64,000 nt of DNA, taken from NCBI GenBank assembly GCA_045863235.1, contig BTUM01000028.1, forward strand, positions 18,117-82,116, read 5' to 3'. The DNA is from Candidatus Xenobia bacterium. Lineage in GTDB: Bacteria > Vulcanimicrobiota > Xenobia > Xenobiales > QWHO01. Position numbers and translations under genes: made by a program. The number at the start of each line of letters is the position of its first letter. The first letter of the stretch is position 1. The notes under the pieces are model-generated. The model was given only the letters and a program-made list of their open reading frames with translations, did not search any database and was not told the DNA's origin. Below are positions 36,114-57,551 of this stretch, one piece after another.

Positions 36114-37676
36114 TCATTTGAAATTCTGCGCCGGTGATGGGACTCCTGTGGTTTGGTGCTGCCTGGTAGGCAGGCGAACACTTCCGACCACCACCTGACC
36201 CTGGCGTTCTTCCACGCCCCCGCGGCTACTTCGCCCCACCTGCTCCAGGGCCGAGGCCACGGCCCGCTCGGGCTGGCTCTGATCAAAGAGCCTGGACTCG
36301 GCCTGGCGATTCAGGTTCTGGCACAGGATGTCGACCGCTTCCAACAAGCTCTTGCCTGCCAGCGCTCCGCCGGTCTGGCGCTCGAGTCGTAGGCGCTGCA
36401 GACACTCCACTTCCTGCCAGCCCCGGCCGCGCGGATTGAGGCGACGCAGGCTGGCCTGCAGACGGTCGTGGGCCTGCCGGGCGACGGGCAGGTCGCCGGT
36501 TGCCCGCAACTCGCTCCAGACGGCGCGGGTGGCCGCCATGTCGCGCTGGCAGTCCGAGTAGATGCGGGCCAGGGCCAGCTCGCGTTCCTCGCGCGTTTCG
36601 CTGCCGCAGGCCGATCGGGCCAGGAGGTGGCTGGTGAGGTGACGCCACTTGATGCGCTGCCAGCCGGCCCGGAGCTGGACTTCCTCGGACCGAAGTCTGT
36701 CGACCGCTGGATTTTCCTGGAGCTGGCGGGCTGACCAGTCGGGATCGCCCGAGAGGGCCAGCAGACGCAGGAAGTCTTCTCTTGGACCGCCCTCGCGCAG
36801 GCGAACGAGGGCGTCCCGGCAGCCGAAGGGCTCGGCACCAGGCCCCAGAGCCTGCTTGATCGCCTCGAGCTCGGAGTCGCCGTGGTCGAGTAGCTGCTGG
36901 TAGAGCTCGAAGTGCCCAAAGCGCCCGGGGGCAAATTCGAAGGCCTGCACCGCCGCCTCCAGGCGAGCACTCATCGGATGCTCGCAGTCGCGCTGCACGG
37001 CCCGGTGAGCGGCGTCAGCCAGGGCCGGGTCCTTCAGCTCGCGCGTCAGCCGGTTGAGCGGCTCGAGCCGGGCCATGACGGCCTGGTCGTCAACGAGCTC
37101 CGAGGGCTTGAAGGTGAGACCGGCCAGGCGCACCTCGTCGCTTGCCCCTCGGTAGAGGGCCATGGCCACCGTCTGGCTCGATTCGGGCAAGCCTCGGGTG
37201 AGGGTCCGACCGGTGTCGCACAGGGCCTTGAGCGAGCGGGCCAGGGCGGGTTGGGCCAGCTCCTGGTCTTTGGCACCGAGGCCGTTGAGGTAGGAGGCCA
37301 GCTTGAGCTCGTCCAGGTTGCTCACCACCAGCACGCTCTGGTCGGGCCGCGCGCGAAAGGACACGCGTTGGCCCTGGCTGAGGCGGGCGTAAGTCTCGGG
37401 CAGCTTGTTGCCCAACTGGCCTTTCAGCTGCAGGACCGTGGCCGCAAGCTCGCCGGGCGGGTCCGCCTCGAGGGCCTCCAGGGCGGTCAGCTCCTCGGGA
37501 CGGAACAGAGTCTGGTAGCCCTCCCGCGTGCGAGCCTCGACGCTCTTGCCCCGCGACAAGAGCTCGTGGGCCTCCTCGGCTTCCACCGGCCTTGTCTTGC
37601 CGCTGCCATACCAGGGGCCGAGCTCGCCGTAAGTGGCAGCCCGGGAAGGCATATCAGGACGGATCAAGGCCATCAT
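36114..37676 (-). CDS. Hypothetical helical protein with shared C-terminal motif
   Basis: 520-aa ORF; repeats resembling 43068 protein; VEERQGQVVVGSVRLPTR. Confidence 0.75.
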   Translation of the reverse strand: MMALIRPDMPSRAATYGELGPWYGSGKTRPVEAEEAHELLSRGKSVEARTREGYQTLFRPEELTALEALEADPPGELAATVLQLKGQLGNKLPETYARLSQGQRVSFRARPDQSVLVVSNLDELKLASYLNGLGAKDQELAQPALARSLKALCDTGRTLTRGLPESSQTVAMALYRGASDEVRLAGLTFKPSELVDDQAVMARLEPLNRLTRELKDPALADAAHRAVQRDCEHPMSARLEAAVQAFEFAPGRFGHFELYQQLLDHGDSELEAIKQALGPGAEPFGCRDALVRLREGGPREDFLRLLALSGDPDWSARQLQENPAVDRLRSEEVQLRAGWQRIKWRHLTSHLLARSACGSETREERELALARIYSDCQRDMAATRAVWSELRATGDLPVARQAHDRLQASLRRLNPRGRGWQEVECLQRLRLERQTGGALAGKSLLEAVDILCQNLNRQAESRLFDQSQPERAVASALEQVGRSSRGGVEERQGQVVVGSVRLPTRQHQTTGVPSPAQNFK

Positions 37677-37681
37677 GGCTC

Positions 37682-37713
37682 AGATTACGCCCTGGCTCTG
37701 AAAGGCCCCTGAA
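37682..37713 (-). promoter_or_regulatory. Direct-repeat box promoter
   Basis: TTCAG-N6-TTCAG-N10-TAATCT-N5-ATG. Confidence 0.65.
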
Positions 37714-37771
37714 GTCTCAATTCGTACCGCAAAAGCAGGGGACTGCCCCGAGAGCGCGTAACGGGCCCGGC

Positions 37772-38260
37772 ATGAGTCTGGGAATTGCTTTCAAGAGTTT
37801 CTTCAAAGCGCTGCAGGACAAGGAGTTCGCGGCCCGGGTGGGCGAGCTTTTGGCCGGGGGCAAGACCGAGAAGGTCCCTCCACCCCCCACCGCCGGGCAA
37901 CTGCTGGCCGTGCTGCAGCGCGAGGGCCGTTTCGTGGACTTCTTGCAGGAAGACCTCAAGGGCATCGGCGACGCTCAGATCGGCGCGGTGGCCCGCACTC
38001 TGCATGAAGGCTGCCGCAAGGTGGCCACCCAGTATCTGACTTTGGAACCCGTGCGCTCCGAGGAAGAAGGCGCCGCCGTCACGGTCGAGCCGGGCTTCGA
38101 CCCGGCCGAGGTGCGGCTGGTGGGCAACGTGGTGGGCGACCCTCCCTTCAACGGGACCCTGCGCCACCACGGCTGGAAGCTCACCCGGGCCGAGCTGCCT
38201 GAAGCTGCCGCCACGCCCGAGCGCACCGTGCTGGTTCCCGCGGAGGTAGAGCTTTCATGA
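37772..38260 (+). CDS. DUF2760-like protein (Hsp70-associated)
   Basis: QLLAVLQREGRFVDFLQED, VRLVGNVVG, LRHHGW, VPAEVEL; coupled to Hsp70. Confidence 0.8.
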   Translation: MSLGIAFKSFFKALQDKEFAARVGELLAGGKTEKVPPPPTAGQLLAVLQREGRFVDFLQEDLKGIGDAQIGAVARTLHEGCRKVATQYLTLEPVRSEEEGAAVTVEPGFDPAEVRLVGNVVGDPPFNGTLRHHGWKLTRAELPEAAATPERTVLVPAEVELS

Positions 38261-40011: not shown

Positions 40012-40080
40012 GCCTGGTAGAGGCCCCCGGGCGCGGGTTGTCGTATCTACTGGAAGCGACTTTTCGCTCGAGGGGGTTTC

Positions 40081-40968
40081 ATGCGCCTGTCGGTTCTCAC
40101 GCTCACCCTGGCCGCCTCAGTTCAGTTGGCCACAGCTCAGATGCCCGGCGGACCGTGCGGGCCCTGCGCCCCCTGCGGTCCGGCCCCGGCTGGCCCCATG
40201 GGACCTCAGACCATCATCGTGAATCCGGATGGTCCGATGGACCGCGGAATGCTCGACGATTCCTCTGACCCTGACCGGCCTGGCTATCGGGGTCCGGCTC
40301 CCGAGGGTCCCCCGGTCAATCCACTCGACCAGCGGGGCGCTGAGGATGCAACGCTGGGTCAGGTGCTCTCTCAGCTCAATCCCAACGAGCGCCAGCAGCT
40401 CGAGCAGATTCTTCAGAGCTACCAGAACGACATGAACGCCTACATCGCGAGTCATCCTCGGGCCTCCGACGCCATCGGTGTCAATGGGACGATCATGAAC
40501 GTCATCGAGAGCTTTCGAAGCACCACCGGTATTGGCACAAACGAGCGGGGCTGTGACCCGGTCTCCACCGCGGCCGGAAACATGATCGCCCCTCTCACCG
40601 GCCAGCCTGGCTCTTCCTGGCGAGTCCACGAGTATGAGTACGTGCCCAATCCCGACGCCACCGTCTCGGGGCACCTCGGGCGTCTTGTCGTGGCCGTTGG
40701 TGTTCCAGCCGTGGCCGGCAGCCTGGCCACAGGGGGGCCATGGGGTGGAATCGGCGGAGCTGTAGCCGGTGGGGCGGGTTGGGCCATCACCAGCTTCGAG
40801 CACAACATGGTCGTGCTGGTCAACAATCGCGACCCGAACTTGACAGTCGTGCTCGACCCACACGGAGCTCAGAGCGGAAACATCGACTCCGTGCACGGCC
40901 CCGGCCACTATTCAGGGGCCCGGATCGATGCGCAGTACCGCCCTCCGACCAGCACCGCACGCCCGTGA
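40081..40968 (+). CDS. Secreted protein with glycine-zipper hairpin and putative Cys-His-Asp triad
   Basis: Signal peptide; GCD, EHN and VLDP motifs. Confidence 0.6.
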   Translation: MRLSVLTLTLAASVQLATAQMPGGPCGPCAPCGPAPAGPMGPQTIIVNPDGPMDRGMLDDSSDPDRPGYRGPAPEGPPVNPLDQRGAEDATLGQVLSQLNPNERQQLEQILQSYQNDMNAYIASHPRASDAIGVNGTIMNVIESFRSTTGIGTNERGCDPVSTAAGNMIAPLTGQPGSSWRVHEYEYVPNPDATVSGHLGRLVVAVGVPAVAGSLATGGPWGGIGGAVAGGAGWAITSFEHNMVVLVNNRDPNLTVVLDPHGAQSGNIDSVHGPGHYSGARIDAQYRPPTSTARP

Positions 40969-41720: not shown

Positions 41721-41738
41721 TCAATCGCCAAGCCGGCG

Positions 41739-42104
41739 CTATGACTTTTTGGGGGGCATGGTGCCGGAAGCCGTGTAGTTGACCACTGCTTTCGAGGACT
41801 TGCCCATCCCGTAGCTCGCCTGCACGGTCAGCTCGATCGGAGCTCCCTCTTTGAGCTGGTTGGGCAGCGGAACCTGCCAGTTCCCCTTGGAGTCAGCTGT
41901 GGTGGTGGCGCTCAGAGTTCCCGTGACCTCAATCTGGGAGCCGGGAGTCGCCGTCCCCTTCAGGAGGAAGAGCTGGCTCACCTTGGAGCCCAGAGAGGGA
42001 AAGTCGACTTTTACGTTGACGCTTTCTCCCTGGGCGTTCGTTCCTTGGGAGCTGAGAATGAGCACCGACAGTGCGATCAGAATGCTGAGTCCTAAACGTT
42101 TCAT
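41739..42104 (-). CDS. Small secreted Ig-like protein
   Basis: Signal peptide; GTATPGS and ADSKGNW motifs; GGAGG RBS. Confidence 0.7.
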   Translation of the reverse strand: MKRLGLSILIALSVLILSSQGTNAQGESVNVKVDFPSLGSKVSQLFLLKGTATPGSQIEVTGTLSATTTADSKGNWQVPLPNQLKEGAPIELTVQASYGMGKSSKAVVNYTASGTMPPKKS

Positions 42105-42234
42105 GGGGCCTCCCGTTGGTGTCCTTGGTGGCCCTTGCTTTGATTTGAGAGGAGCCACCTCCTGCTCTGGAGGCGCGGCCGGAAAGGCCGTGCCGATCAA
42201 CACGTTGTGCTCGACCGACCGATTGAGCTTGAGC

Positions 42235-43002: not shown

Positions 43003-43028
43003 GGGTCAGCGGCCTTTGACCTTCTGCT

Positions 43029-43061
43029 TTCACGTTCCTTTCAGCTCCGCCGGGCTAGACT
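43029..43061 (+). promoter_or_regulatory. Direct-repeat box promoter
   Basis: TTCAC-N6-TTCAG-N11-TAGACT-N6-GTG. Confidence 0.65.
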
Positions 43062-43067
43062 CTCATC

Positions 43068-46000
43068 GTGGACATTCAGCGCCTACCGATCTCCTCTGCC
43101 TCGAGTCGCCCCGAGCATCTGGGGGCGGCCCGCGAGCTGGTGGCCCGCGGGCACACCCTGGAGCGCTTCGAGAAGTCGTTCTGGCGAGGCGAGCGCTGGA
43201 CCTCGGCCACCCCCCAGCAGGCCGCCGAGGCGCTGGCCGACCGGTCTCCCGTGCGCCTCAAGACCGACCAGGGCAAGACTCTGACCATCGCCAGCGGAGA
43301 GGACCTGCTCGAAGCCCACGCCCTGTGCGCCAACGGGCCGCTCCAGAGCCTGCCCTCTCCCGCCCTGGCAGCCGGACTCCAGGCTTTGGAGCGGTCCGGC
43401 CGCCTGCTGCGCGAGCAAGAGCCGGTCACCGCCTACGAGGCCTACAACCAGTTGACCGGCGATCCCAACCATCCCGGGAACGGTCTTTTGACGTTCGAGC
43501 AGGGCGGAGTCAGGGTTTCCCTGGCCAGTTCCGAGGTGGTGGCCACCACGGCCTACCTGGCGGCAGACTTCGGCGATGGCAAGGGGGTGCCACCCGAGGC
43601 CGCCCAGCTGGTGGCCTGGAAGAAGGGGGGTTACCAGCTCCCCTCGCTGCTCACCGCTTTTCATCAGGACGCTCCCCTGGAGCTGAGCTACCGCGGCTTG
43701 TCTCTGGCCCGGCTGGCCCGTCAGGACTGGGCCCGCCCCGAGACCAGCGCCACCCTCACGCAACTGCGAGAGCAGGTGGACGCCACCACTCGCGAGCTGG
43801 GCCGGCCGCCTTCCCCCCCGCAGTGGCAGTTGCTGCAGCTCGAGCCGACCAGGCCCTTTCAGGAGAGGCTCGAGCTCTTCAAAGAGCTGCCCGACCCGGA
43901 CCACTATCGCCTGGCACTCTCTCGCGCCGAAGCCGATCAGCCTTTGCTCGAGACTGCCCGCCCGGTGCAGCAGGCCCTGGCGGCGCTGGGGGCTCAGGCT
44001 CCCCTCGAGAGCCTGGAGCAGGCCTTCACCCATCTGGCCGGCTTGCAGGAAGAGGAGCGACCCGCCTATCTCAGTCTGCTGAAGGCCGGTGCCGCTCCCC
44101 CTCTGGCCTTGCACGCCCTGGCCTCGCGCGTGGGCCCGGAGATCGCCGAGCGCTGGCTGCGCGCCCTGCCCGAGCGAGAGTCGGCGGGGCTGCTGGCAGC
44201 CGCCAGCGAGATTCCCGCGGCGGTCGAGGCCGGGCCCTGGCTGGAAGGACAGCTCAACCGGCTTACCCGGGCCGGACTGCAGCCGGCCGAGGGGGCCCAG
44301 CTCTTGATGGTGCTGCTGGGCCGTCGCCAGTATGATCAAGCCGAGGCTCTGCAGGAGAGAGCGGCCGAGCTGCCTCACGCCGAGCTGCTGGCCGCCGCTA
44401 CCGCCGCAGGCCGGCTGTCCAGCGACGGGCCTTTGCTGAGGCTGGCCGCCGGCCAGGAGCAACCGGTGCCGGCCTACCGGACCCTGGCCGCCCAGATCCT
44501 CCCCGAGAACCAGGAGGCATTTCTGCAGTTGCACGAGCAGTGCGGACCGCTGGAGAAGTCGCTGGCGGCCTGGGAGGCCGTCAGCTCCGATCCGGCTCGT
44601 CTGTGCGAGCGCCAGCAAGCCTGGTCGCAGCTCAACCAGGCCGTCAAGTCCGAACAGGCTACCCATATCTTGAGCCAGCTGGGGCCCCAGGCGGACCCGG
44701 TGGCCTCGGTGCGCGACCTGCTGGCCCTGCTGCCGGCCGTGGGAGGGGATCTGGAGCAGGCCCGGGCGGCCTGGGACAAGCTGCAGGGAAACTCGTTCGC
44801 GGCTCAGCTCTTCGGCGTGACTCCCGAGGCCGAGCAAGCCTTGCTGGCGGCTCGCTACGTGGAGCGACGCGACCTGCCCTGCGCTCAACAGCCTCTGGAG
44901 GACCGCCAGCAGGCGTTGCTGGCCCTGGCTCGGGCCCACCGCGGGGATCTCCGCTCGGCCACGCAGGACTACCTGTTCATCGCCTCCGGCCTGGAGGATC
45001 CCGAGGCGCTGCCTCAGGCGGCCCACCTCATGCAGGACCTGATCGCGGCGACCGGCTCGAGCCGAGAGGCCCGGCTGGCTTATGAGCAGCTCTCCCGGCT
45101 CGATCCCGAGCAGGGTCCGGCATTGTACCCGGCTCTGCGGACGGCGCTGGCGTCGGCCGGCAGCGTGACCGAAGCCTGGCCCCTGTGGGAGGGCATCCGC
45201 AAGCTGACTCCCGAGGAAGCCCGCCAGCGCACCGCACCCCTCGACGACCCCGCTTTCAGCGCGCTTCCGGCCCGGGCTCGGGCCACTCTGGCGGCCGGAC
45301 AGCTCAGCGCGCCGCTCGGGCCCCAGGGAATCAAAGCCCTCAAAGAGATGGTTGGCAAGCTCTCGGGCCTGAGCTGGCAGGCCACCGGCTCGTGGGTCCG
45401 CCAGGACGGCTCCTACGTCCTCAGCCGGGCCAGCGCCGGAGGGGACGTGCTGGTTTCCGGTCCTATCGACCTGCCCGCCGACGGTCAGTTCGAAGCCAGG
45501 CTCTTCGCCAGTTGGGCTCTGCCCGAAGGAGCTCGCGTCAACTGGGATGTCAGCGCCGACGATGGCGTGACCTGGAAACCGGTGGTCTATGCCGAGAAGT
45601 CCAACGCCATCAAGGGAGAGCAAGGGTATTCCTTGAACGCCTATGCCGGCAAGAGAGTGCGCTTTCAGATCGCGCTCGCGAACGCGCAACCGGGCGCTGA
45701 AGCTCAATTCAAGCTCGATGGCTTGCGCCTGGATGAGACCAAGGTCCTCTCCCACGAGACCATCGGCACCAGTCAGCTCACCCAGACCGGCTCGCCAGCC
45801 GTCAAGGGGGAGGCGACCTGGACCTCGCCTCTGCTGACCATTCCAAAGGGCGCTGATTCCACGCTTCAGGTGCAGCAGATGACCTACAATCGCTCGCCCT
45901 TCAACGACATCGAGCTTCAGATCCAGGGCTCGAGCGGAGCCTGGGAGCAGGCTTCGTTCTTCTACAGCGACAGCTATGAGTCGTCCACTCGAGCCATCTC

Positions 46001-47009
46001 CCTGGAGAAGTATGCCGGTCAGACCATCCGTTATCGCTATCGCATGAACGTGAGCAAGACCGGGTCGGCCAGTTACGAGCAGCCCCACCTGAGCATCTAC
46101 GATGCCCAGCTGATCCACAAGAAGAAGGATCAGTCCGGGGCCCTGCACGAGGATCTCTTCCATCGCGAGCATCTCGACCCCATGACCGTGGCCCGCCTGG
46201 CGGCTGATCCGGCTGTGGCGGCATCGACTCGCGAGCGCCTGCTGCAGGGCTTGCAGGCTCTGGTCGAGAGTACGGGCCATTCGGGCAAAGCCTGGTCGGC
46301 TCTCGAGAGCTTGCGCTCGCAAGCCGACCAGCCCGATTTCGTGGACCGTTGTCGCGCCTACGGATACCTGATGGGCGGCGAGAAACCCGCCGAGAGGCTG
46401 GAGGAGCTGGTGGCGCACCTTCGTCCGGGCGACCGCCTGGAGGATCTGGCCCGCATCGCCAGCGTGCGCTCCGTGGAGCAACTGCTCGAGCTGCGTCGGC
46501 GTCTGGATGCCGAAGGAGCTCAGTCCGACAGCCTGGGCTTCGTGGCCCGGGCTGCCGGGCGGGGGATCGCTCCGGAATCGGCCTGGTCGGCCGCCGCTCC
46601 CCCCGTGGTCGGGTGCGAGCTGGCTCAGCGTCAGCAGCTGATCGAGAACCTGACGGAGAGTTTCGCGGCCGATGGGATTGGACTTTGGAACGAGCTCACC
46701 GCCTGGCGCGAGCCGGCCGACAACCCGGCCCGGACGGTGCGGGCCCTGACCCAGCTCGGAAAGCTGGTCCAGCCGCCTCAGCTGCTCGAGGCCCTGCAGG
46801 CCCTGCAGAAGGCTCGCCGGGAGGGCCAGACTTCCCGCTCGCTCCACGGCCTGGTAGAGGGGGTGGCCAACAAGATGCTGATGGAGGGTGGTGGCGACCT
46901 GGCGGCAGTGGTCCAGGCCACCCTGCTCGAGCGCGAGTCAGGCAGCCAGATCCTGGAAGAAGCCAACCGGATCATCTTGCCCGGCACCACTGTGGCCCGG
47001 CGCGCCTGA
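43068..47009 (+). CDS. Large helical-repeat protein with two jelly-roll domains and shared C-terminal motif
   Basis: 1313 aa; two SxxxYAGxxxR beta-sandwich units; ends ILEEANRIILPGTTVARRA. Confidence 0.78.
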   Translation: MDIQRLPISSASSRPEHLGAARELVARGHTLERFEKSFWRGERWTSATPQQAAEALADRSPVRLKTDQGKTLTIASGEDLLEAHALCANGPLQSLPSPALAAGLQALERSGRLLREQEPVTAYEAYNQLTGDPNHPGNGLLTFEQGGVRVSLASSEVVATTAYLAADFGDGKGVPPEAAQLVAWKKGGYQLPSLLTAFHQDAPLELSYRGLSLARLARQDWARPETSATLTQLREQVDATTRELGRPPSPPQWQLLQLEPTRPFQERLELFKELPDPDHYRLALSRAEADQPLLETARPVQQALAALGAQAPLESLEQAFTHLAGLQEEERPAYLSLLKAGAAPPLALHALASRVGPEIAERWLRALPERESAGLLAAASEIPAAVEAGPWLEGQLNRLTRAGLQPAEGAQLLMVLLGRRQYDQAEALQERAAELPHAELLAAATAAGRLSSDGPLLRLAAGQEQPVPAYRTLAAQILPENQEAFLQLHEQCGPLEKSLAAWEAVSSDPARLCERQQAWSQLNQAVKSEQATHILSQLGPQADPVASVRDLLALLPAVGGDLEQARAAWDKLQGNSFAAQLFGVTPEAEQALLAARYVERRDLPCAQQPLEDRQQALLALARAHRGDLRSATQDYLFIASGLEDPEALPQAAHLMQDLIAATGSSREARLAYEQLSRLDPEQGPALYPALRTALASAGSVTEAWPLWEGIRKLTPEEARQRTAPLDDPAFSALPARARATLAAGQLSAPLGPQGIKALKEMVGKLSGLSWQATGSWVRQDGSYVLSRASAGGDVLVSGPIDLPADGQFEARLFASWALPEGARVNWDVSADDGVTWKPVVYAEKSNAIKGEQGYSLNAYAGKRVRFQIALANAQPGAEAQFKLDGLRLDETKVLSHETIGTSQLTQTGSPAVKGEATWTSPLLTIPKGADSTLQVQQMTYNRSPFNDIELQIQGSSGAWEQASFFYSDSYESSTRAISLEKYAGQTIRYRYRMNVSKTGSASYEQPHLSIYDAQLIHKKKDQSGALHEDLFHREHLDPMTVARLAADPAVAASTRERLLQGLQALVESTGHSGKAWSALESLRSQADQPDFVDRCRAYGYLMGGEKPAERLEELVAHLRPGDRLEDLARIASVRSVEQLLELRRRLDAEGAQSDSLGFVARAAGRGIAPESAWSAAAPPVVGCELAQRQQLIENLTESFAADGIGLWNELTAWREPADNPARTVRALTQLGKLVQPPQLLEALQALQKARREGQTSRSLHGLVEGVANKMLMEGGGDLAAVVQATLLERESGSQILEEANRIILPGTTVARRA

Positions 47010-47139: not shown

Positions 47140-48111
47140 TTAAGGCTTGGCGGTGCGGGCCTCGATGGCCGCCTCGCGGGCCCGGGCTTCCTCCGCTCGC
47201 AGGGCCTGACGGCGCTCGTATTCGGCGTCGAACTTGCCCTTCACGATCTCGTGGAAGATCTTCCGGTTGATCCCCTGGTCCTTGAGGAATTGCTCCTCGG
47301 TGATCTGTCCCAGGGCAAAGGCTTTCACGCCCGGGTCCTGCCAGCAATGGGGCTCGCGGCCCGTGGTCTCATAGATCAGCTTCTCCCACTTGCGGAAGAA
47401 GTGGGTTTTCGTCATCAGGGGGTTCCACATCCCGTTCACGATGCAGTAGTTGTCGGCCCAGGGCATCCGGTGATGGATGGCGTGGTCCTCCTTGGATTGG
47501 ATGACGTGCAGTTTCTGCATGAGCTTGGCGATGGCCGGGGGATTCTTCTGGTGGCTCCAGCGATGCGAGCCCTGGGCCACGAAGCCGGCGGCCGAAAATC
47601 CCAGGGTGAAGGCCTGCGCCGCCCAATGGGGCCCGGCGGCAGCGACGGCGGCCATGGGGACCCACATGTACTTCCCCGCGTCGGACATGTTGGTCCAGAC
47701 GGTCTTCTCCTGCAGTTCCTGCATCTTGTGATGGTGGACCTGGAATTCGTAGGCCAGGTCGCCCACGATGGGGGTCTTGTAAGTCGGGTAGTTGTCGATC
47801 CAGTGGTGGAACATGCCGCTGGCCAGGTCGGCGGTCACGTGCCCGGCTGCCATGGCCACCAGCGAGCCGGCGACCACGCCGACCGCGCCCGGAACGCTGC
47901 CGGTGGCGGCGGCCTGAAGCGCGATGTTGGCTCCCAGCCAGAGCCCGGACCCGATCACGGCCCCGCAGGCCAGCTTGTCTTTCAGGGGGGTGGTGTACTC
48001 CCTGGTCACCTTGAGGTCCACCGGATCAGGCGCAGCGGCCTGTGCAGGTTTGTCGGGGGCAGCGCGGCCCGGCAGCCCGGGGCTGAAAGTGGTGAGGGTG
48101 GGGATCATCAT
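47140..48111 (-). CDS. CarF/TMEM189/FAD4-family membrane lipid desaturase
   Basis: DLASGMFHHWIDNY, FQVHHH, SHRWSH, HAIHH, NYCIVNGMWNP; GGAGG RBS. Confidence 0.85.
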   Translation of the reverse strand: MMIPTLTTFSPGLPGRAAPDKPAQAAAPDPVDLKVTREYTTPLKDKLACGAVIGSGLWLGANIALQAAATGSVPGAVGVVAGSLVAMAAGHVTADLASGMFHHWIDNYPTYKTPIVGDLAYEFQVHHHKMQELQEKTVWTNMSDAGKYMWVPMAAVAAAGPHWAAQAFTLGFSAAGFVAQGSHRWSHQKNPPAIAKLMQKLHVIQSKEDHAIHHRMPWADNYCIVNGMWNPLMTKTHFFRKWEKLIYETTGREPHCWQDPGVKAFALGQITEEQFLKDQGINRKIFHEIVKGKFDAEYERRQALRAEEARAREAAIEARTAKP

Positions 48112-48148: not shown

Positions 48149-48203
48149 AGGTTACCCCATCGAGCTTGAATCGCACTGGGGAGAACCTTGACCAGGCCTT
48201 GAC
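48149..48203 (-). promoter_or_regulatory. Direct-repeat box promoter (extended)
   Basis: TCAA-N7-TCAA-N18-TCAA-N11-TAACCT (11-bp phasing). Confidence 0.5.
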
Positions 48204-50623: not shown

Positions 50624-53268
50624 AGAAGACTCTGACCACGTTGCTGCTGGCCGCTTGCCTGCTCTCGGCCTGCAGTTCGCCCGCGCCTCAGGCCGCCACG
50701 CCCACCAACCCCGACATTCCCGGTCTTCCTTTCCCGCTGCCAAGCACCGTGTCTCGCGACGAGTTTCAGCCCAGGCTGTACAAGTTTCTCACCGACCTGA
50801 CCTATCGCAACCTGCCCGGCTGGCGCAAAGACAAGGGGGTGCGGGATACCGGTCCTTTTCTGGACGGGGTCTACTACGGCACCCATCCGGCCGTGCGCAC
50901 CTACTACTCGCCCGAGGTCTTTGCCTGGATGAAGGCGGGTCGGGTCGGGAAGATCCCCGATGGGGCGATGATCATCAAGGAGATGTACAATCCGCCGGCG
51001 GCCCGCTACGCCGGGCTCAATCCGGATACCTCGCTGCCCATGCCGACCTGGACCTGCATGATCAAGGACAGCGCCGGCTCGAAGGATGGTTGGTACTGGG
51101 TCTACTTCGACTCCAACCCCAACGGCACCACCCCACCCACACCCCAGCCGGTGGACTCGGACGGCCCTCCCTTCTCCTACCCCAACTCCGGTTTCGGCTC
51201 TTACTGCGTGCAGTGCCACACCTCGGCTGACGGCGAGGAGTTCACCTTTGCCGCCCTGGAGAACGTCGCAGGCGAGCCGGGTACGCCCATCACCTATGAA
51301 GATGACGGCTCCTGGCGTCAGATGAAGGATTATCAGTTCAAATTCATGGCTCGCGTGCACACCCCGCTGGACGGGTCGGTTGATTCACCGGCTGACCCCG
51401 GCTATGTCAACGAAGAGTTCGTGGCCCAGTTCAACACTTTCGGAGATGCCGCCAACGGGCCGATCCAACCCATCCCCGGGGTCACCACCGATCGCTCGGT
51501 TGCTCAGGCGCATCGCCAGTTCGTCAGCTCGGATCAGTGTATGTCCTGCCACGCCGGAGACAGCTCTCCGTTCGGACCCAACATGTTCTTCCCCAACGAG
51601 GGCAAGGACGGGGTGGACGTCTCGCCCTTCGCCGAGTGGAGCTGGTCCATGATGGGCCTGGCCGGACGCGATCCCATTTTTCACGCCCAGCTCGAAGGGG
51701 AGGTGGCCACCCATCCGGCTCAGGGCCAGCTCACTCCCGAGAGCATTCAAAACCTCTGCTTTTCCTGCCACGGGGTCATGGGTGAGCGTCAGCTCAAACT
51801 TGACGATCCGCATGCCAATTTCACCCAGAGTCGAACCCAGGATCCCAACGACCCGTACGGCAAACTGGCCCGCGACGGGGTCTCGTGCGCCCTGTGCCAC
51901 CAGATCCAGGACAATCGGCACGTCCCGCTGGTGGACGTGCAGACTGGCCGCTTCAGCCTCAACCCGCGGAACCCGCAGGGCGAGCTGGTTCTCAACGGTC
52001 CCTTCGATCATCCCGTGACCTTCCCCATGGGCAAGAGTCTCAACGCCGAGCCCGTTCACAGCTCCTTCATCTCCGACTCGAGGCTGTGCGCGAGCTGTCA
52101 CACGGTGTTCCTGCCCGTGCTGGATGCCCAGAACAACGTGGTGGACAATCGTTACGAGCAGGCCACTTACCTCGAGTGGCTCAACTCCAGCTTCCGTGAC
52201 GGCGGCCCCAGCCCTCAGAGTTGCCAGCAGTGCCACATGCCTGATACTGCCTTCGGCCAGTTGCTCAACAACTTCAAGATCGCCAACATCCAGGACCAGG
52301 ATTATCCCATCACCTCGAACCTCTCGCCCCTGAACCTCATCACCGTGCTCAAACGCCCGGGATTCCGCCGCCATACCCTGTTGGGCATCAACCAGTTCGG
52401 GCTGGAGTTCTTCCAGCACTTCCCGGCTCTGCTCGGCATCAGCAAGGTCAACTTCATGTCCGGTACGACGGACGGTCTGACCAGGGCCATTCAAAACAGC
52501 CAGGAGCTGGCCCGCGAGAAGAGCGCCCGGGTGGAGCTGTCCGGTGTGCAGAGGGCGGGCAACGCGCTCTCGGCCCAGGTGAAAGTCACCAACCTGACCG
52601 GCCATCGTTTCCCCAGTGGAGTCGGCTTCCGCCGCGCCTTCCTCCTCTTCGAGGTGCGCGACGGAGCGGGCCAGGTCGTCTGGGCCTCGGGTCGAACCAA
52701 CTCGATCGGCGTGATCGTCGGCCCCGACGGTCAGCCTCTGCCCAGCGAGTTCCACGACGTCGATCCGGCCACCGGACAACAAGCCTTCCAGCCGCACTTC
52801 CAGACCATTACCTCGGAGAACCAGGTGCAGGTCTATGAGGAGATCGTGGCCGACCTGCAGGGCAAGTTCACCACCAGTTTCCTCAACCGGGCCACCGACA
52901 TCAAGGACAACCGCCTGATGCCCCTGGGCTGGACCTTCCCGGGTCCACCCGGCTTTGCGCCTGAGTTCGCCGAGGCCACCGCCCCCTTCGGCGGTGCGGC
53001 CAATGACGCCGACTTCACCGATGGCACCGGCTCGGACACGCTCAGCTACCAGGTCACCCTGCCGGCCGGCGCGGTGGGCCCCTTCTCGGTGCGGGCCGAG
53101 CTGTTCTACCAGGCCATCCCGCCTTACTACCTCCAGGACCGGTTCACCGACTCGCAGGGCCCGGCATCGCTGCGGCTCTACTCCATGGCCAGCAAGCTCG
53201 ACACCCTGAAGACCAACTTCCCCAACTGGAAGTTGCCCATCGCCGAGGCCACCGGTCAGGTTCCCTGA
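50620..53268 (+). CDS. Hexaheme c-type cytochrome lipoprotein with N-terminal cytochrome P460-like domain
   Basis: Lipobox LSAC; PDGAMIIKE..MIKD..GWYW..CVQCH plus CMSCH, CFSCH, CALCH, CASCH, CQQCH; GHRFPSG. Confidence 0.85.
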   Translation: MKKTLTTLLLAACLLSACSSPAPQAATPTNPDIPGLPFPLPSTVSRDEFQPRLYKFLTDLTYRNLPGWRKDKGVRDTGPFLDGVYYGTHPAVRTYYSPEVFAWMKAGRVGKIPDGAMIIKEMYNPPAARYAGLNPDTSLPMPTWTCMIKDSAGSKDGWYWVYFDSNPNGTTPPTPQPVDSDGPPFSYPNSGFGSYCVQCHTSADGEEFTFAALENVAGEPGTPITYEDDGSWRQMKDYQFKFMARVHTPLDGSVDSPADPGYVNEEFVAQFNTFGDAANGPIQPIPGVTTDRSVAQAHRQFVSSDQCMSCHAGDSSPFGPNMFFPNEGKDGVDVSPFAEWSWSMMGLAGRDPIFHAQLEGEVATHPAQGQLTPESIQNLCFSCHGVMGERQLKLDDPHANFTQSRTQDPNDPYGKLARDGVSCALCHQIQDNRHVPLVDVQTGRFSLNPRNPQGELVLNGPFDHPVTFPMGKSLNAEPVHSSFISDSRLCASCHTVFLPVLDAQNNVVDNRYEQATYLEWLNSSFRDGGPSPQSCQQCHMPDTAFGQLLNNFKIANIQDQDYPITSNLSPLNLITVLKRPGFRRHTLLGINQFGLEFFQHFPALLGISKVNFMSGTTDGLTRAIQNSQELAREKSARVELSGVQRAGNALSAQVKVTNLTGHRFPSGVGFRRAFLLFEVRDGAGQVVWASGRTNSIGVIVGPDGQPLPSEFHDVDPATGQQAFQPHFQTITSENQVQVYEEIVADLQGKFTTSFLNRATDIKDNRLMPLGWTFPGPPGFAPEFAEATAPFGGAANDADFTDGTGSDTLSYQVTLPAGAVGPFSVRAELFYQAIPPYYLQDRFTDSQGPASLRLYSMASKLDTLKTNFPNWKLPIAEATGQVP

Positions 53269-53300
53269 TTCAGGGATCTGTCAGCTTGCCGAGCTAGACT
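53269..53300 (+). promoter_or_regulatory. Direct-repeat box promoter
   Basis: TTCAG-N6-GTCAG-N10-TAGACT-N6-ATG. Confidence 0.65.
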
Positions 53301-53306
53301 CGGGCC

Positions 53307-54128
53307 ATGATCGCGCCACTGGCCCTGGGAGGGCATATCCAGCCCTGGGAGCGCGAGCCGCTGGAGCGTCTGGCCGAGCAGCTCGATCGCTACCAGTCGC
53401 TGGCGCGTAGCGAACGCGAGGCGCGTAAGTATGCCGACCAGCAGCAGACTCTGCGGGCGCTGGTGGCCGACCCGAGCCTCTCGTCCAGGGCCCGCGGTTC
53501 GGTGCTGGCCGGCTGGTCGAGCACTCCCGCTCCGGGATACTGGCTCAACCACTGGGAGCAGCTCACCGGTGCCCCTCGTGAAGAGCTGTACTGTCAGGCG
53601 GACAAGTTGCTCTCGGGAGAGCCCCCCAAAGTGCGCGAAGCTCTCTCGCAGCTGCCCGCCGAGTGTTTGGTGCGAGCCTGTCAGAGCTCTCTGGGTGCCG
53701 ACTTCACCCCCCCGCAGGACGCTACCGCCGGCGAGCTGGCGGCCGCCGCCCAGGCTGCTCAGTCGAGCAGGGGGTTGTTCCACAGCGAGCGGACCGCCCG
53801 CATGCTGAGGGGCCTCTTCCAGGCCGAGCTGGCTCCGACCGAGCGCCAGCGAGGTTTCGAGCTGGTGGGTGACCGGCTGCACGCTCTGCGGATGAGCGAT
53901 GCCACCGGCTATGTGGCCCAGGTCTCCGAGTTGATCACCCGACCCGAGCTGACCTCGACCGTGCGCCTGGGAGCGTTGCTCCACCTGGGTCCGGAGACCG
54001 AGTTGGAGCACGCTGTCGAGGCCGCTCGACTGACCAGCGCCCTGGAGCCCGCCCTGACTGCGGTGAGCGAAACGCTGGGATTCGTTCAGTTCAACGGGGT
54101 GGTGCTGCGCAAGCGCGTCAACTCCTGA
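53307..54128 (+). CDS. Hypothetical helical protein with shared C-terminal motif
   Basis: 273 aa; ends VSETLGFVQFNGVVLRKRVNS. Confidence 0.7.
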   Translation: MIAPLALGGHIQPWEREPLERLAEQLDRYQSLARSEREARKYADQQQTLRALVADPSLSSRARGSVLAGWSSTPAPGYWLNHWEQLTGAPREELYCQADKLLSGEPPKVREALSQLPAECLVRACQSSLGADFTPPQDATAGELAAAAQAAQSSRGLFHSERTARMLRGLFQAELAPTERQRGFELVGDRLHALRMSDATGYVAQVSELITRPELTSTVRLGALLHLGPETELEHAVEAARLTSALEPALTAVSETLGFVQFNGVVLRKRVNS

Positions 54129-56109
54129 GGGCCCGCTCGTGCCAGGCGTCCAGAACCTGGCTCAAAGCCTCGAAGTCGATCGGCTTGGTCAACACGTCGT
54201 CCACTCCCGCTTCGACCAGCGCCCCTCTCTGTCCCACGCTGGCGGTGAAGGCCACCAGGTAAGGCTGGCGCTCGGGGGGGAGCTTGCGGATCGAGCGGGC
54301 TACCTCCAGGCCGTCCAGGGTAGGCAGGTTCAGGTCCAGGAAGACCAGCTCGAAGGCCCTTTCCTCCAGCAGGCTCAGGCCCTGAGGGCCATCCTCGGCC
54401 CAGACCGAGGGGTGACCGAGCTCTCGCAGCATGCAGGAAAGCACTTTGTAGTTGATGGGGGTATCCTCGATGATCAGGGCGGTGGCCCGAGCCGCCAGCT
54501 GGACGGCCGGCCCCGGACTCTGGACCGGCTGGCTCAGGCGCTCCACCGCGTTGCGCAAGGCGGCCCGGTGGGCCGGGAGAATCAGGCTTCCGGCCGCGCC
54601 GTTGCGGGTGGACTGGCCCATGGGATGGAGATCGAGCCAGAGGGCCCCATTCTCGGGTGGGCTGGCTTGCGGTCCCAAGAGCAGAAGGTCGGACCGGAGG
54701 TCGACCTGATCGGGCCCCGTCAGGCGATAGCCCGCTCGCTGGACGGCTGACTCCATCCCGCGCCGAGTTTCCGGGCCCAGGCCCAGCAAGAGCATGGCCG
54801 GGGAGTCGGGATCGGGGGCCGCTGGCGGGGGGCTGGTGGCCGGGAGGGGAAGGGTGAGGGTGAAGGTGGATCCCTGCCCTTGCTGGCTCTCAACCTTGAG
54901 CTGACCTTCCATCAAGAGCGCCAGGCGCGAGCAGATGGCCAGCCCGAGTCCGCTGCCGCCGTACTTGCGGGTGGTGGAGGCGTCCAGCTGGTGAAAGGGT
55001 TGGAAGAGCTCTGCCTGGCGAGATGGGGGGATTCCCGCCCCAGTGTCTTTCACGTCCATGCGAAAGCCCAGGGGCAGGGGGCTCAGCTCGACCACCACCG
55101 AGCCCTGGCCGGTGAACTTGACCGCGTTGGAGAGTAGATTGCAGGTGATCTGGCGAAACCGGAAGGGGTCGCCGAGGTAGCTCTCGGACAGCCCCGGGTG
55201 CACCACCAGAGCCAGTTCGAGCCCCTTGTTGTAAGCCGGCGCGGCAAAGAGCTCGAGGCACTCCTCGGCGGCCGTCTCGGGCGAGAAGGGTGCCCGCTCG
55301 AGCACCACCCCGTTCTCCGATTCCAGGCGCGAGAAGTCGAGCACGTCGTCGAGCACCGACTTGAGGAGCTTGCCACTCTTGATCAGGGCATCCACCATGT
55401 CGCGCTGCTCGGCGTCGAGGCGGGTGCGGGCCAGAAGCTCGGCCATCCCGGTGACCCCCTGAAGGGGCGTGCGGATCTCGTGGCTCATGGTGGCCACGAA
55501 CTGAGACTTGAGCGCCTCGGCTGCCACTGCCTCGTCGCGCGCTTGCTCCAGGACCCTGGCTTGCGCCGCCAGCAGACTCACGTGGTGGTCCATTCCCCGC
55601 CTCAGCCCCACGCCAAAGATGAGGATCATCAGCGTGATCACGATCTGGGACATGGCCACCTGCCATCCACGGGCCACGAATTCGGGTTGGATCGGGTAGA
55701 GGGTCGAGCTGGCGTGGATGCCGGCGATCATCAGGATCGAGAGAGCGGCCCAGATCAGCCCCCAACGCCAACCCAGCAGGTAGGCTGCGTAGAGGGGCGA
55801 GAGCACCAGACCCCAGACTCCCACCGCCTGGCCCTGCCCGGTCAAGAGCGCCCCGAGCAAAGAGACCAGGCAGGCGATGGCCACGATGAAGTGGGCCACC
55901 ACTTTCGTCTGGCCCAGATCGCGGGCCTTCCATCCGGCCCAGAAGAGGGCGAACATGACCGCGCAGGCGGTGGAGTAGAGCAGCGAGGTCATCGGTCGGC
56001 CCATCAGGGAGTTGCGCACGGCAAAGGGCAGGAAGGCCAGGCTGACGGTCGAGGCCAGGATCTTGAAGCGGATCCGGTAGGCCCGGTCCTCGGCCGACTG
56101 CTCAGTCAC
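54118..56109 (-). CDS. Hybrid sensor histidine kinase (TM-HisKA-HATPase-REC)
   Basis: MSHEIRTPL, NLLSNAVKFT, DTGAG, GSGLGL, FLDLNLP. Confidence 0.93.
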   Translation of the reverse strand: MTEQSAEDRAYRIRFKILASTVSLAFLPFAVRNSLMGRPMTSLLYSTACAVMFALFWAGWKARDLGQTKVVAHFIVAIACLVSLLGALLTGQGQAVGVWGLVLSPLYAAYLLGWRWGLIWAALSILMIAGIHASSTLYPIQPEFVARGWQVAMSQIVITLMILIFGVGLRRGMDHHVSLLAAQARVLEQARDEAVAAEALKSQFVATMSHEIRTPLQGVTGMAELLARTRLDAEQRDMVDALIKSGKLLKSVLDDVLDFSRLESENGVVLERAPFSPETAAEECLELFAAPAYNKGLELALVVHPGLSESYLGDPFRFRQITCNLLSNAVKFTGQGSVVVELSPLPLGFRMDVKDTGAGIPPSRQAELFQPFHQLDASTTRKYGGSGLGLAICSRLALLMEGQLKVESQQGQGSTFTLTLPLPATSPPPAAPDPDSPAMLLLGLGPETRRGMESAVQRAGYRLTGPDQVDLRSDLLLLGPQASPPENGALWLDLHPMGQSTRNGAAGSLILPAHRAALRNAVERLSQPVQSPGPAVQLAARATALIIEDTPINYKVLSCMLRELGHPSVWAEDGPQGLSLLEERAFELVFLDLNLPTLDGLEVARSIRKLPPERQPYLVAFTASVGQRGALVEAGVDDVLTKPIDFEALSQVLDAWHERALRS

Positions 56110-56154
56110 CAGGGCGGATTTCGGACCCGGCTCGACCGCGCCCTTCCCGTCAGG

Positions 56155-56829
56155 TCAGACGACGAACCGGTAGCCGTTGCCGCGCACCGCGCACAGGGGC
56201 CTCCAGCCCGGCTTGGCCTGAGAGATTTTGCGGCGCAGGCTGGAGACGTGGGTGTCCAGTGTCTTCAGGGATCCGGAGTAGTCGCGGCCCCAGATCTCGT
56301 CAAGCAAGGTGTCGCGGGAGGTGGTCTGGCCACGGGCGGCCATCAATCGGCGCAACAGCTCGAATTCGATGCGGGTCAGCTTGAGGTCGTTGCCATCGCA
56401 AATAACTCGGTAGCCGGTCGGATCGAGGGTCAGGCAACCGGCCCGAAGCACCGACTCGGTCTGCCCCAGGTCGGGGCGACGGAGCAGCGCCTCGACCCGC
56501 ACGAGGAGCTCGGCCGGCTCGTAAGGCTTGGTCACGTAGTCGTCGGCTCCCAGCCGGAACAAGGTCACCTTGTCCAGGGTGGTGGTGCGCCCCGACAAGA
56601 TCAGAATAGGAACGTCGCTGTGCTGCCGCAATCGGCTGCAAAGCTCGGCACCGTCTGCGTCCGGCAACATCAAGTCGAGCACCACCAGGTGCGGTCGCGT
56701 GCGCCGGAAGACTTCGCTGAGGGTGCGCCCCTCGGTCATCCAGGTGACCTCGAAACCGTGGCAAGAGAACAGCTCTTGCACAGCCCGGCCGCAGACCGCA
56801 TCATCTTCGACCAGGATTAACCGATGCAA
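56155..56829 (-). CDS. OmpR/PhoB-family response regulator
   Basis: LVEDD, LDLMLP, GADDYVTKPY, LDTHVSSLRRKI, VRGNGYR. Confidence 0.93.
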   Translation of the reverse strand: MHRLILVEDDAVCGRAVQELFSCHGFEVTWMTEGRTLSEVFRRTRPHLVVLDLMLPDADGAELCSRLRQHSDVPILILSGRTTTLDKVTLFRLGADDYVTKPYEPAELLVRVEALLRRPDLGQTESVLRAGCLTLDPTGYRVICDGNDLKLTRIEFELLRRLMAARGQTTSRDTLLDEIWGRDYSGSLKTLDTHVSSLRRKISQAKPGWRPLCAVRGNGYRFVV

Positions 56830-57061
56830 CCGCTTTGCCTCCTCCCCCCGGGCGCCTCAGGCCAGTTCCCATTCACTCAAGTTGGCTCTGCGACAAAGTG
56901 TAGCACACACAAAGATCGAGGGCTGACCCCGCTGGCTCGTTCATAAACTGTTAACATCGTTCTGAACTTTCTGGATGCTCCAGGCCTCAAGACCGGGCAT
57001 AGTAGACATGGCTTCCGCGGGCTCCATGATGTCGTCTCCCGTGGGAGCCATTTTCTTTCTG

Positions 57062-57466
57062 TCAGCGATTGAGCACGGTGGGCAAGACCACCCCGCGCAA
57101 CACGGCAAAGGTGGCTGCGGTAGCCAGGGCTCCGGGCCAGCCAAACTGGGCCCCGGCGGCCGCAGCCGCCAACCCTACGCCGGCTCCGATGGCTGCTCCC
57201 GCGACCTTGCTCTTGCCCAGCGACTCGGCCATCTGCATCCCGATGCTGGCGCCGATGAATCCGTCCATTCCATAGGCCACCGCCGGCGAGTAGCCCAGAC
57301 TGGTGAAGCTGTTGGCTCCGCCAGCCATGACCAGGCCCACGAAGCCGGCTGCCAGGCCTCCTCCGGTATCCACCACGAAGCGGTCTTTGGGCTCCGGCGC
57401 CGCGGGCGGGGGGGTACTCGCTCCCTGCGGTCGAGCGTAGCGCACGGTGGCTTCTGTAATCTGCAT
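57062..57466 (-). CDS. Small glycine-zipper membrane protein with Pro-rich N-terminus
   Basis: AAGGGGA RBS; GxxxG-rich helices. Confidence 0.7.
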   Translation of the reverse strand: MQITEATVRYARPQGASTPPPAAPEPKDRFVVDTGGGLAAGFVGLVMAGGANSFTSLGYSPAVAYGMDGFIGASIGMQMAESLGKSKVAGAAIGAGVGLAAAAAGAQFGWPGALATAATFAVLRGVVLPTVLNR

Positions 57467-57519
57467 GGTCGTCCCCTTCTTGCTCTGGTCGAGCGATCGC
57501 GCAGATCGCCATGCCTTGC

Positions 57520-57551
57520 AGGGTATTGCGGGGCGCTGAAACTTCCTTGAA
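57520..57551 (-). promoter_or_regulatory. Direct-repeat box promoter
   Basis: TTCAA-N6-TTCAG-N10-TACCCT. Confidence 0.6.

Follow-up and report, generated by a model that had tools for sequence, protein, structure and literature searches.

Legionella PmrA, rhizobial TtsI with its tts box, and Xanthomonas HrpX with its PIP box govern dispersed effector regulons. The HilA and MprA boxes were also weighed as possible closer matches to the element described here and were not retained. A further documented layout is the CiaR site, NTTAAG-N5-TTTAAG with 10 nt to the −10 hexamer (PMC3091779). With regard to the machinery, the transition from flagellum to injectisome is treated as a single event by Abby and Rocha, for whom flgB, flgC, and fliE are flagellum-specific markers, missing from the Myxococcales system (PMC3459982). 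Buchnera and Sneabacter keep a basal body without a filament, for which effector secretion has been proposed (bioRxiv 10.1101/719211). In the same phylum as the bacterium studied here, the marine Candidatus Eudoremicrobiaceae have large genomes, are predicted predators, and received the TXSScan call "T3SS_putative, no_decision"; the relevant sections of that account describe no regulon, substrate set, or flagellum-derived system (PMC9259500).

We analyzed a window of 64 kb, that is, the whole stretch of DNA under study, from a Xenobia (Vulcanimicrobiota) genome; positions are numbered along this stretch. The first-pass annotation claimed five genes with a shared promoter architecture, and four of these sites are present exactly as it wrote them. 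On the minus strand at 37682..37714, boxes at 37714-37709 and 37703-37698 are followed by N10 and the −10 hexamer TAATCT (37687-37682), with a matrix score of 26.2; the ATG of the gene starting at 37676 lies 5 nt past the −10 and the gene is predicted to be leaderless. On the plus strand, the site at 43028..43061 (boxes 43028-43033 and 43039-43044, −10 at 43056-43061) has the rarer N11 and scores 31.2 with the spacer extended by one, and the site at 53268..53300 (boxes 53268-53273 and 53279-53284, −10 at 53295-53300) scores 26.1; both precede predicted leaderless genes, with a GTG at 43068 and an ATG at 53307, each 6 nt past the −10. The fourth site, on the minus strand at 57520..57552 (boxes 57552-57547 and 57541-57536, −10 at 57525-57520; score 24.1), is separated from the gene starting at 57466 by a 53-nt leader with a ribosome-binding site. 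The fifth site, proposed at 48149..48203 (minus strand) for a desaturase gene starting at 48111, has the letters described and a −10, yet its box matches are poor; because its matrix score is 1.2 against a membership cut-off of 18, the desaturase is not supported as a regulon member. The strict pattern matches four times in the window versus a mean of 0.03 in Markov-3 resamples (maximum 1 in 60); at the density seen across the genome, 2.7 sites would be expected in 64 kb, and the window is therefore not special. Four RNA runs, all of them assembled contigs, which cannot show starts or co-expression, gave flat coverage over the stretch.

For the four uncharacterized proteins encoded at these sites, no Pfam or NCBIfam family was found. 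The 520-aa protein (36114..37676, minus strand) is likely cargo, has no paralog in its own genome, and carries a GGV-type C-terminal tail at residues 475-506 (36159..36254, minus strand; 19.1 bits). The 1313-aa protein (43068..47009, plus strand) is related to the regulon proteins C5:16680, C44:35855, and C9:46710, the first two of which bear canonical GGV tails; its own tail (residues 1283-1312; 46914..47003, plus strand) is degenerate, at only 2.8 bits. The 273-aa protein (53307..54128, plus strand) has a predicted all-helical body (model pLDDT 87.9), nine homologs, none with a Pfam domain, and a GGV-type tail (54045..54116, plus strand; 12.9 bits) predicted to form a β-hairpin behind a flexible linker, whose basic end is kept in 10 of 10 homologs. 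A C-terminal motif had been claimed for three of the window's proteins; it is clear in the 520-aa and 273-aa proteins, weak in the 1313-aa protein, and not present in the other two. One of these is the 134-aa protein (57062..57466, minus strand), which has a typical regulon N-terminus and Gly/Ala-rich hydrophobic segments; the other is the CarF/FAD4-type lipid desaturase (47140..48111, minus strand; PF10520 at residues 92-257), which has a Pro/Ala-rich N-terminal extension and is one of seven paralogs, three of the other six being under strong sites.

Genome-wide, the element reads tTTCAG-N5-TTTCAG-N10-TAnnnT, a direct hexamer repeat with an 11-bp period and with 10 nt between the end of box 2 and a sigma-70 −10 hexamer, and it occurs at 351 sites with a score of at least 18, versus 30–45 at six shifted spacers. 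The genome scan that the first-pass annotation called for, run with the strict pattern, returned 80 matches at spacing 6/10 and 0–4 at each of 79 other spacings. Frequent occurrence inside coding sequences had been named as evidence against a regulon; boxes are intragenic in just 27 of the 351 cases in a genome that is 91% coding. The dispersed set of sites is real, on a scale of about 350 rather than five. Predicted leaderless genes are opened by 224 of the sites, and for 169 an ATG or GTG start codon lies at +6/+7, so transcription is predicted to begin 6–8 nt past the −10, often at the start codon itself. The element resembles the CiaR sites of streptococci in its two hexamers 5 nt apart, the relaxed first T of box 1, and the 10 nt to the −10 (PMC3091779), and differs in its box (TTTCAG rather than TTTAAG) and number (about 350 sites versus 15 CiaR promoters), as well as in its mostly leaderless sites and in targets without Sec signals.

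The 335 regulon products form 248 families, 207 of them singletons, and 90 of the 134 products scanned had no Pfam match. Candidate cargo classes include lipid-remodeling enzymes, proteases, nucleases, β-propellers, and many unknowns; several enzyme domains begin 50–190 residues into the protein. A predicted enrichment before genes with the C-terminal motif was borne out: the GGV tail is found in 85 of the 335 products versus 40 of 6981 other proteins (odds ratio 59, p = 4e-87). It is predicted to be a β-hairpin, is spread over 60 unrelated families, and gave no usable Atlas match and no solved-structure match below E 0.08. We considered the tail as a universal export signal and rejected this role because it is limited to some lineages; in family f2, which has both motif and machine, it is nearly missing (3 of 16 genomes, a single weak match each). 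Most likely, it is a lineage-specific sorting or target-membrane tag.

The same genome encodes a flagellum-derived cluster comprising flgBC, fliEFGHIJ, fliK, fliMNOPQR, and flhBA, in which the export apparatus, MS ring, C ring, and rod are present and all core export genes homologous to sctJNQRSTUV were found. FlhA is matched in 39 of 41 genomes, and the cluster is syntenic in four of the five relatives' clusters read. In contrast to a bacterial flagellum, searches of this 97.6%-complete genome found no flagellin, hook cap, or cap and junction proteins and no match to FlgK, FlgL, FliD, FliS, FlgA/H/I, or MotA/B, and no markers of a motor or of L/P rings; the single MotA/ExbB match adjoins an ExbD-like gene. 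Similar to nonflagellar type III systems, the cluster has the full export core with its ATPase and a FliK ruler and is accompanied by a candidate pilin-like subunit but by neither motor nor flagellin; unlike them, it retains flgB, flgC, and fliE, its FlhA scores 814.6 bits with the FlhA profile (cut-off 772) and 616.5 with the SctV profile (below the cut-off of 692), and no secretin lies inside the cluster. That FlhA is 43–45% identical to a true flagellar FlhA. The pilin-like protein, a small helical protein of 81 aa encoded beside flhA, is modeled as one long helix and has Atlas features scoring 0.91/0.90 to clusters with 23–24% HrpA members; it has no Pfam or Foldseek match. Three such genes lie in tandem, only one of which carries the regulon motif, and in genus g4 no member of the family turned up (0 of 6). 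For the 273-aa window protein, fold searches likewise gave no significant match (Foldseek best E 0.08; wide search best Z 8.4, to designed helical repeats). The blanks for these two proteins and for the tail do not show new folds.

Like Buchnera and Sneabacter, this bacterium has basal-body genes without filament genes. Unlike in those reduced endosymbionts, whose cargo is not known, the cluster occurs across the class in genomes of 2–9 Mb, is joined by what may be a new filament subunit and by candidate substrates numbering in the hundreds, and in 8 of 41 genomes sits beside a true flagellum; flagellin and FlgD are confined to these eight, which carry a second FlhA (~45% identical). As in the PmrA, TtsI, and HrpX regulons, a single cis-element precedes many scattered, unrelated candidate-substrate genes, although the box is different, the machine is flagellar in origin, and the apparatus has a repeat of its own. 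The motif had been expected before secretion-apparatus genes; this expectation failed, since the apparatus operon lacks the motif, a different direct repeat being located upstream of its genes. Three translocon candidates under this second repeat have no Pfam family.

The features observed directly in the sequence are the motif and its spacing, its position just ahead of start codons, the N-terminal signature common to the products, their GGV tail where present, and the export cluster, together with the missing flagellar and T4SS/T6SS markers. Our preferred reading, with a probability of roughly 65%, is that a regulon which formerly served the envelope has been redirected to activate cargo genes of a secretion system derived from the flagellum. 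We propose that a phosphorylated response-regulator dimer would bind both boxes head-to-tail, replacing the −35 element, and recruit sigma-70 polymerase. The mostly signal-peptide-free products would be exported by the conserved type III machine, which has no filament or motor genes; the second direct repeat would turn on the apparatus genes, making a two-tier cascade; the small helical protein encoded beside flhA may build the conduit; and the cargo may act on a prey or host cell.

The regulon could instead be real while its products are retained in the cytoplasm or released through type I export, vesicles, lysis, or the type II secretion system (T2SS) or pilus machines, the cluster exporting its own structural parts only. 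In keeping with this, the genome has operons for a T2SS and a type IV pilus, and the two full secretins sit in them, a gene context that gives no support to either as the outer-membrane channel of the machine; FlgH is missing, the apparatus has its different upstream repeat, and small gut genomes of genus g3 keep the apparatus with zero sites, so that motif and machine can come apart. T2SS cargo, however, requires Sec or Tat signals. The first-pass annotation described products without a Sec signal, and the genome agrees: Sec-like N-termini occur at 3.6% among the 224 leaderless products and at 6.3% among the 111 leadered ones, versus 25.1% of 6952 other proteins, an approximately six-fold depletion, with 15 of the 335 products having one. 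Families that are normally exported (endonuclease I, clostripain, and PQQ-type propellers) are here mostly without Sec signals, and no TssC, VirB4, or sheath marker of T4SS or T6SS was found in five of five genomes. Finally, the signature of the regulon products occupies the very start of the protein, the location of flagellar type III signals (PMC8983047). We consider export by another route, or none, unlikely.

A second alternative is an expanded stress or developmental regulon, in which the N-terminal bias would be no secretion signal but a side effect of translating leaderless messages and of genes that are young and disordered. Two thirds of the sites are leaderless, most families are singletons, and some members resemble housekeeping proteins (MFS, AdoMet decarboxylase, HrpB helicase). 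The ancestral targets also fit, being envelope proteins and a regulator-kinase operon. The motif is conserved in 24 of 41 relatives (reversed controls, 0–1), and in distant classes it precedes a few Sec-exported envelope genes, an older use that would predate the cargo role. Nevertheless, the bias extends to leadered members: Ile or Val occupies position 2 or 3 in 70% of leaderless and 48% of leadered products versus 21% of others, commonly with a Ser/Pro/Ala-rich N-terminus, and Sec-like N-termini are reduced in leadered products too (6% versus 25%). A classifier using the N-terminus only reaches an AUC of 0.87, and still 0.84 with gene-caller starts; it fails on one third of members, and FlgB, FlgC, and an FlgE/G-like protein score low. 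Its 10% false-positive threshold is passed by 22 of 40 tail-bearing proteins that have no site. Trained on this genome, the model recognizes 14 of 25 targets from other genera and 1 of 14 from distant classes, while Sec-like N-termini are found in 0 of 25 targets in other Xenobia versus 12 of 14 in distant classes. A by-product of this kind is thus quite improbable, and the hydrophobic residue at position 2–3 together with the Ser/Pro/Ala-rich stretch is probably a type III export signal.

The first-pass annotation assigned the element to the OmpR/PhoB type, and the 11-bp direct repeat with ten nt to the −10 matches the CiaR geometry. Its proposal of one activator for a non-Sec, probably secreted set is also supported genome-wide, by the fixed spacing, intergenic location, Sec depletion, common N-terminus and tail, and the presence of a suitable export machine. 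We predict that the motif is probably bound by an OmpR-family activator. Just three OmpR-family regulators (C4:32828, C4:205130, and C14:98097) are class-wide, and G037 has these three alone and keeps the motif; the window's own OmpR gene (56155-56829) and nine others, which are not class-wide, were set aside. In G006, a motif-less 2.4-Mb small gut genome in which no diverged motif was found in 420 kb, only the ortholog of C4:32828 has an altered recognition helix, and the helices of the WalR-like and KdpE-like regulators are unchanged. The gene at C4:32828-33514, adjoining a kinase gene, is thus our candidate, to which we give about an even chance. The closest homolog of its product in G180 has a site directly upstream, and in two distant genomes the motif immediately precedes OmpR-family genes that belong to the same broad clade; in this genome, no site lies directly upstream of C4:32828 itself, G014 keeps the candidate's recognition helix yet has no motif excess (4 versus 4), and the sites next to the regulator in five g2 genomes go back to a single inherited arrangement. 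C22:57818 first fitted by presence/absence and was rejected, having a variable helix and no sites nearby and being missing from the motif-bearing G030, G037, and G039. That a non-OmpR factor reads the element, with which the cargo reading could still hold, is very improbable: candidates are offered by the sigma-28-like genes C11:113983 and C74:3-302, the latter truncated at a contig end, and by large proteins with weak winged-helix matches, 12 in all, but a direct repeat that stops 10 nt ahead of a TAnnnT hexamer is the arrangement documented for CiaR (PMC3091779), and the motif precedes OmpR-family genes in the two distant genomes.

If cargo of a flagellum-derived secretion system is indeed switched on by this motif, Xenobia would represent a second flagellum-to-secretion transition, class-wide, rod-retaining, and filament-less, with a cargo list attached; each of several hundred candidate substrates would be marked by a computationally findable promoter, and the system would point to a so far undescribed means by which one cell attacks or manipulates another. 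We tentatively suggest, at somewhat less than even odds, that Xenobia evolved an injectisome of its own from the flagellum, with an origin separate from that of every known type III injectisome, with the rod kept, a new small pilin in place of hook and filament, an old envelope-stress regulator co-opted, and 300 or more effectors, many of them hairpin-tagged; it would then have one of the largest type III repertoires, and the motif would be an effector catalog of a probably predatory class. Such a system makes it possible to test how an uncultured class found in wastewater, soil, the ocean, and animal guts lives, and it offers about 250 mostly uncharacterized protein families together with a terminal tag that is new. 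Even without a link to secretion, the growth of an activator site from a handful of copies to about 350 promoters, most of them leaderless, would be an unusual regulon expansion.

The first-pass annotation described one promoter architecture upstream of five genes in the window; four of these sites, preceding 36114–37676 (−), 43068+, 53307+, and 57466−, are confirmed letter for letter, and the fifth, before the desaturase gene (−), is rejected with a matrix score of 1.2 against at least 18 for members. The strict pattern has four matches in the window versus a Markov-3 mean of 0.03. In the whole assembly (8.36 Mb, 97.6% complete; the window lies on contig C28), it has 80 matches at spacing 6/10 versus 0–4 at each other spacing. 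The TTTCAG repeat holds the top rank in a de novo genome scan, and an iterated matrix converges on tTTCAG-N5-TTTCAG-N10-TAnnnT. At our membership cut-off, a score of 18, there are 351 sites genome-wide versus 30–45 with the spacer shifted, so approximately one-tenth of the sites may be background. Coding sequence makes up 91% of the genome, but the boxes fall within it at only 27 of the 351 sites. An ATG or GTG occurs 6 or 7 nt past the −10 element at 169 of the 351 sites; classified with a custom gene caller rather than a standard program, the sites comprise 224 leaderless, 110 leadered, 4 restart, and 2 internal cases, and the other 11 have no gene nearby. The desaturase (47140–48111) is one of seven CarF/FAD4-type lipid desaturase paralogs, the others being on six other contigs, and strong sites precede three of those six. 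At C133:499–2833, a pair of 71-aa genes have matching ends, and two tandem motif sites lie upstream of each.

Within the window, a 207-aa gene of no family (35494–36117, −) has a 4-bp overlap with the end of the 36114 gene and is probably cotranscribed with it. Divergent from the site at 37713, DUF2760 and Hsp70-like genes are followed by two uncharacterized genes (37772–41720, +). In run X1, one contig is missing 510 bases that contain the small Ig-domain gene (41719–42230), suggesting a related strain that lacks this gene. The operon at 48253–53268 (+) encodes a ferritin-like protein, two small uncharacterized proteins, and a multi-haem cytochrome of 880–920 aa with a P460 domain.

The motif geometry matches that of the CiaR site (NTTAAG-N5-TTTAAG, 10 nt to the −10) as described in the accessible portion of PMC3091779, in agreement with the OmpR/PhoB-type layout initially proposed. 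We consider it likely that an OmpR-family activator reads the motif. The window encodes such a regulator with a hybrid kinase between two regulon genes (54118–56829, −), which is unlikely to be the activator because it is not class-wide. The genome encodes 13 full OmpR-family regulators, three of which are common to all five genomes compared, and one relative (G037) keeps the motif with only these three. Among them, the ortholog of the C4:32828 gene product has an altered recognition helix in the motif-less genome G006 and three other genomes of genus g3; the recognition helices of the other two common regulators are unchanged in G006. Motif sites adjoin the C4:32828 ortholog in G013 and five genomes of genus g2 (one inherited arrangement), a site precedes its closest homolog in G180, and another in G182 precedes an OmpR gene placed in that broad clade on a long branch (support 99/97). 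Counting against this candidate are the absence of a motif site directly upstream of C4:32828 in its own genome and the retention of its helix type in G014 without a motif excess. We place the chances that C4:32828 encodes the activator at even.

The exact motif is present in 24 of 41 relatives (reversed controls, 0–1), with 25–56 copies in the genus of this bacterium, 3–52 in all 16 genomes of family f2, and occurrences in 2 of 19 genomes of family f3; across 201 genomes of the phylum, there are 0–4 copies outside families f1, f2, and f4. With one mismatch allowed, the larger f3 genomes have 2–10 sites versus 0 in controls, G014 shows no excess (4 vs. 4), and G006 has no sites.

The 335 regulon products form 248 families, 207 of which are singletons. 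Among 134 products scanned, 90 have no Pfam match at E 1e-5, and the 44 matches include 12 PQQ-type and 2 other β-propellers, proteases (M48 twice, C1, C11, C26, and C92), endonuclease I, GDPD, amylase, three acyltransferases, two MGDG-synthase-like enzymes, one desaturase, an MFS transporter, AdoMet decarboxylase, PilZ, and HrpB. Several of the enzyme domains start only at residue 50–190. By a simple hydropathy rule, not SignalP, Sec-like N-termini occur in 3.6% of leaderless products, 6.3% of leadered products, and 25.1% of the remaining proteome; Ile or Val at position 2 or 3 occurs in 70%, 48%, and 21%, respectively. A classifier using the first 40 residues reaches an AUC of 0.87 (0.84 with caller-chosen starts) and recovers 68% of members at 10% false positives. 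With this genome as the training set, the classifier flags 14 of 25 targets from genus g2 and family f4, and no Sec-like N-terminus occurs among these targets; in distant classes, it flags 1 of 14, and 12 of the 14 are Sec-like, the targets there being lipoproteins, a YceI protein, and a regulator-kinase operon (5 and 2 sites, respectively, without an ORF of at least 90 aa are excluded from these counts).

The C-terminal motif, noted initially in three proteins, is V-x-E-x4-V-x-V-G-G-V-x-V-[RK]-x-R; this GGV tail occurs on 85 of 335 regulon proteins, spread over 60 unrelated families, and on 40 of the 6981 other proteins (odds ratio 59). In the 53307 protein, it is kept in 10 of 10 aligned homologs and is modeled as a β-hairpin after a low-confidence linker. 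There are 83–149 tails per genome in the same genus, 15 in G040, and 0–4 in genera g8 and g9; they are nearly absent from f2 and g3, and this lineage-limited occurrence rules the tail out as the general export signal. Four regulon proteins (C135:163, C3:76161, C3:123379, and C32:68044) have the motif internally, followed by a common repeat-rich domain of 170–220 aa found nowhere else in the proteome, and the C10:924 protein has two motifs.

A candidate export route is encoded at C27:60720–79252 by flgB, flgC, fliE, fliF, two fliG, fliH, fliI, fliJ, a lytic transglycosylase, fliK, a short FlgE/G-like gene, fliM, two fliN, fliO, fliP, two fliQ, fliR, flhB, and flhA; a second locus contains flgF, flgG, a FlgJ rod-binding domain, and a sigma-28-like gene. 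The components score as flagellar, and the gene order of the cluster is preserved in G013, G007, G006, and G040; in G009, FlhA is solitary within the stretch read. FlhA has a match in 39 of 41 relatives, most best matches being 75–100% identical, and FlhA of several other classes is 66–79% identical. Flagellin and FlgD are confined to the same 8 of 41 genomes, and precisely these 8 encode an extra FlhA (~45% identity). Queries from the true flagellum of G013 have no match in this genome for FliW, FlgL, FlgK, FlgM, FlgA, FlgH, FlgI, FliC, FliD, FliS, MotA, or MotB; TssC, VirB4, and sheath were found in none of five genomes searched, and both full secretins of this genome sit in T2SS and type IV pilus operons. 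With no filament, hook cap, stator, or rings, the system does not qualify as a flagellum; by the criteria of PMC3459982, it does not qualify as an injectisome either, since it retains flgB/flgC/fliE and has no linked secretin. Its closest counterparts are the basal bodies that Buchnera and Sneabacter have repurposed (bioRxiv 10.1101/719211). Five paralogs consisting of only the FlhA cytoplasmic domain (C80:28012, C3:26973, C1:377631, C106:14866, and C107:13658; stretches L161–L165) could be adaptors for sorting or docking. In genus g4, an additional full-length, stand-alone FlhA (62–68% identity) is encoded outside any cluster (L099:16641–18758, L097/L098).

The motif is absent from the apparatus promoters. 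The flgB and FlgE/G-like promoters have a second 11-bp-period direct repeat (GTT[AC]AC-type) in four of five genomes read (stretches L089, L090, and L096), in this genome at C27:69615–69631 and C27:79436–79452 (L006). This repeat, with 35 copies genome-wide versus 1–12 at other spacers, is likely an earlier tier of the cascade. It also lies upstream of several large uncharacterized proteins that could be translocon parts (e.g., C34:65650 and C38:69369).

After flhA come three tandem genes for an 81-aa protein that is likened to HrpA-pilin clusters by Atlas features alone and modeled as a single helix. Members of this family vary at the start and are conserved at the end; 44 of 201 genomes encode them, and none was detected in genus g4. 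The family is also found in two records titled Acidobacteria (L083:5659–6204 and L087:5896–6144), with no export genes within the 12 kb read. A 505-aa protein with a pilin-like segment at its end (L005:1349–2866) and the product of a conserved 104-aa gene that, in several genomes, separates flhA from the pilin genes (L005:4163–4477) are a possible tip protein and chaperone.

We propose that a head-to-tail activator dimer occupying roughly −39 to −23 recruits sigma-70 polymerase, with transcripts starting mostly at the start codon, and that an N-terminal signal would take the products into the FlhA/FlhB/FliPQR gate, from which they would cross the rod and perhaps a pilus built from the 81-aa protein. 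Such a signal would agree with the hydrophobic N-terminal one that PMC8983047 describes for early flagellar substrates. We assign this mechanism, activator-driven promoters feeding export through a flagellar-type gate, a probability of roughly 0.65, and we infer the steps past the sequence anatomy. The genomic data support the first-pass interpretation of one putative activator controlling a predicted secreted-substrate regulon. Legionella PmrA, TtsI, and HrpX control dispersed effector regulons, and the Xenobia regulon would work in a similar manner. The literature we searched contains no paper describing this regulon or system; Ji et al. 2021, the main Xenobia paper, may bear on novelty, and so may subscription papers. 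The accessible portions of PMC11484240, bioRxiv 10.1101/2024.12.05.626484, and PMC13277936 do not treat it, and that of PMC9758169 concerns a member in culture that belongs to a different class. According to the available text of PMC9259500, marine representatives of the phylum are predicted predators; the predicted lipid-remodeling and hydrolytic cargo of the Xenobia regulon suggests action on another cell.
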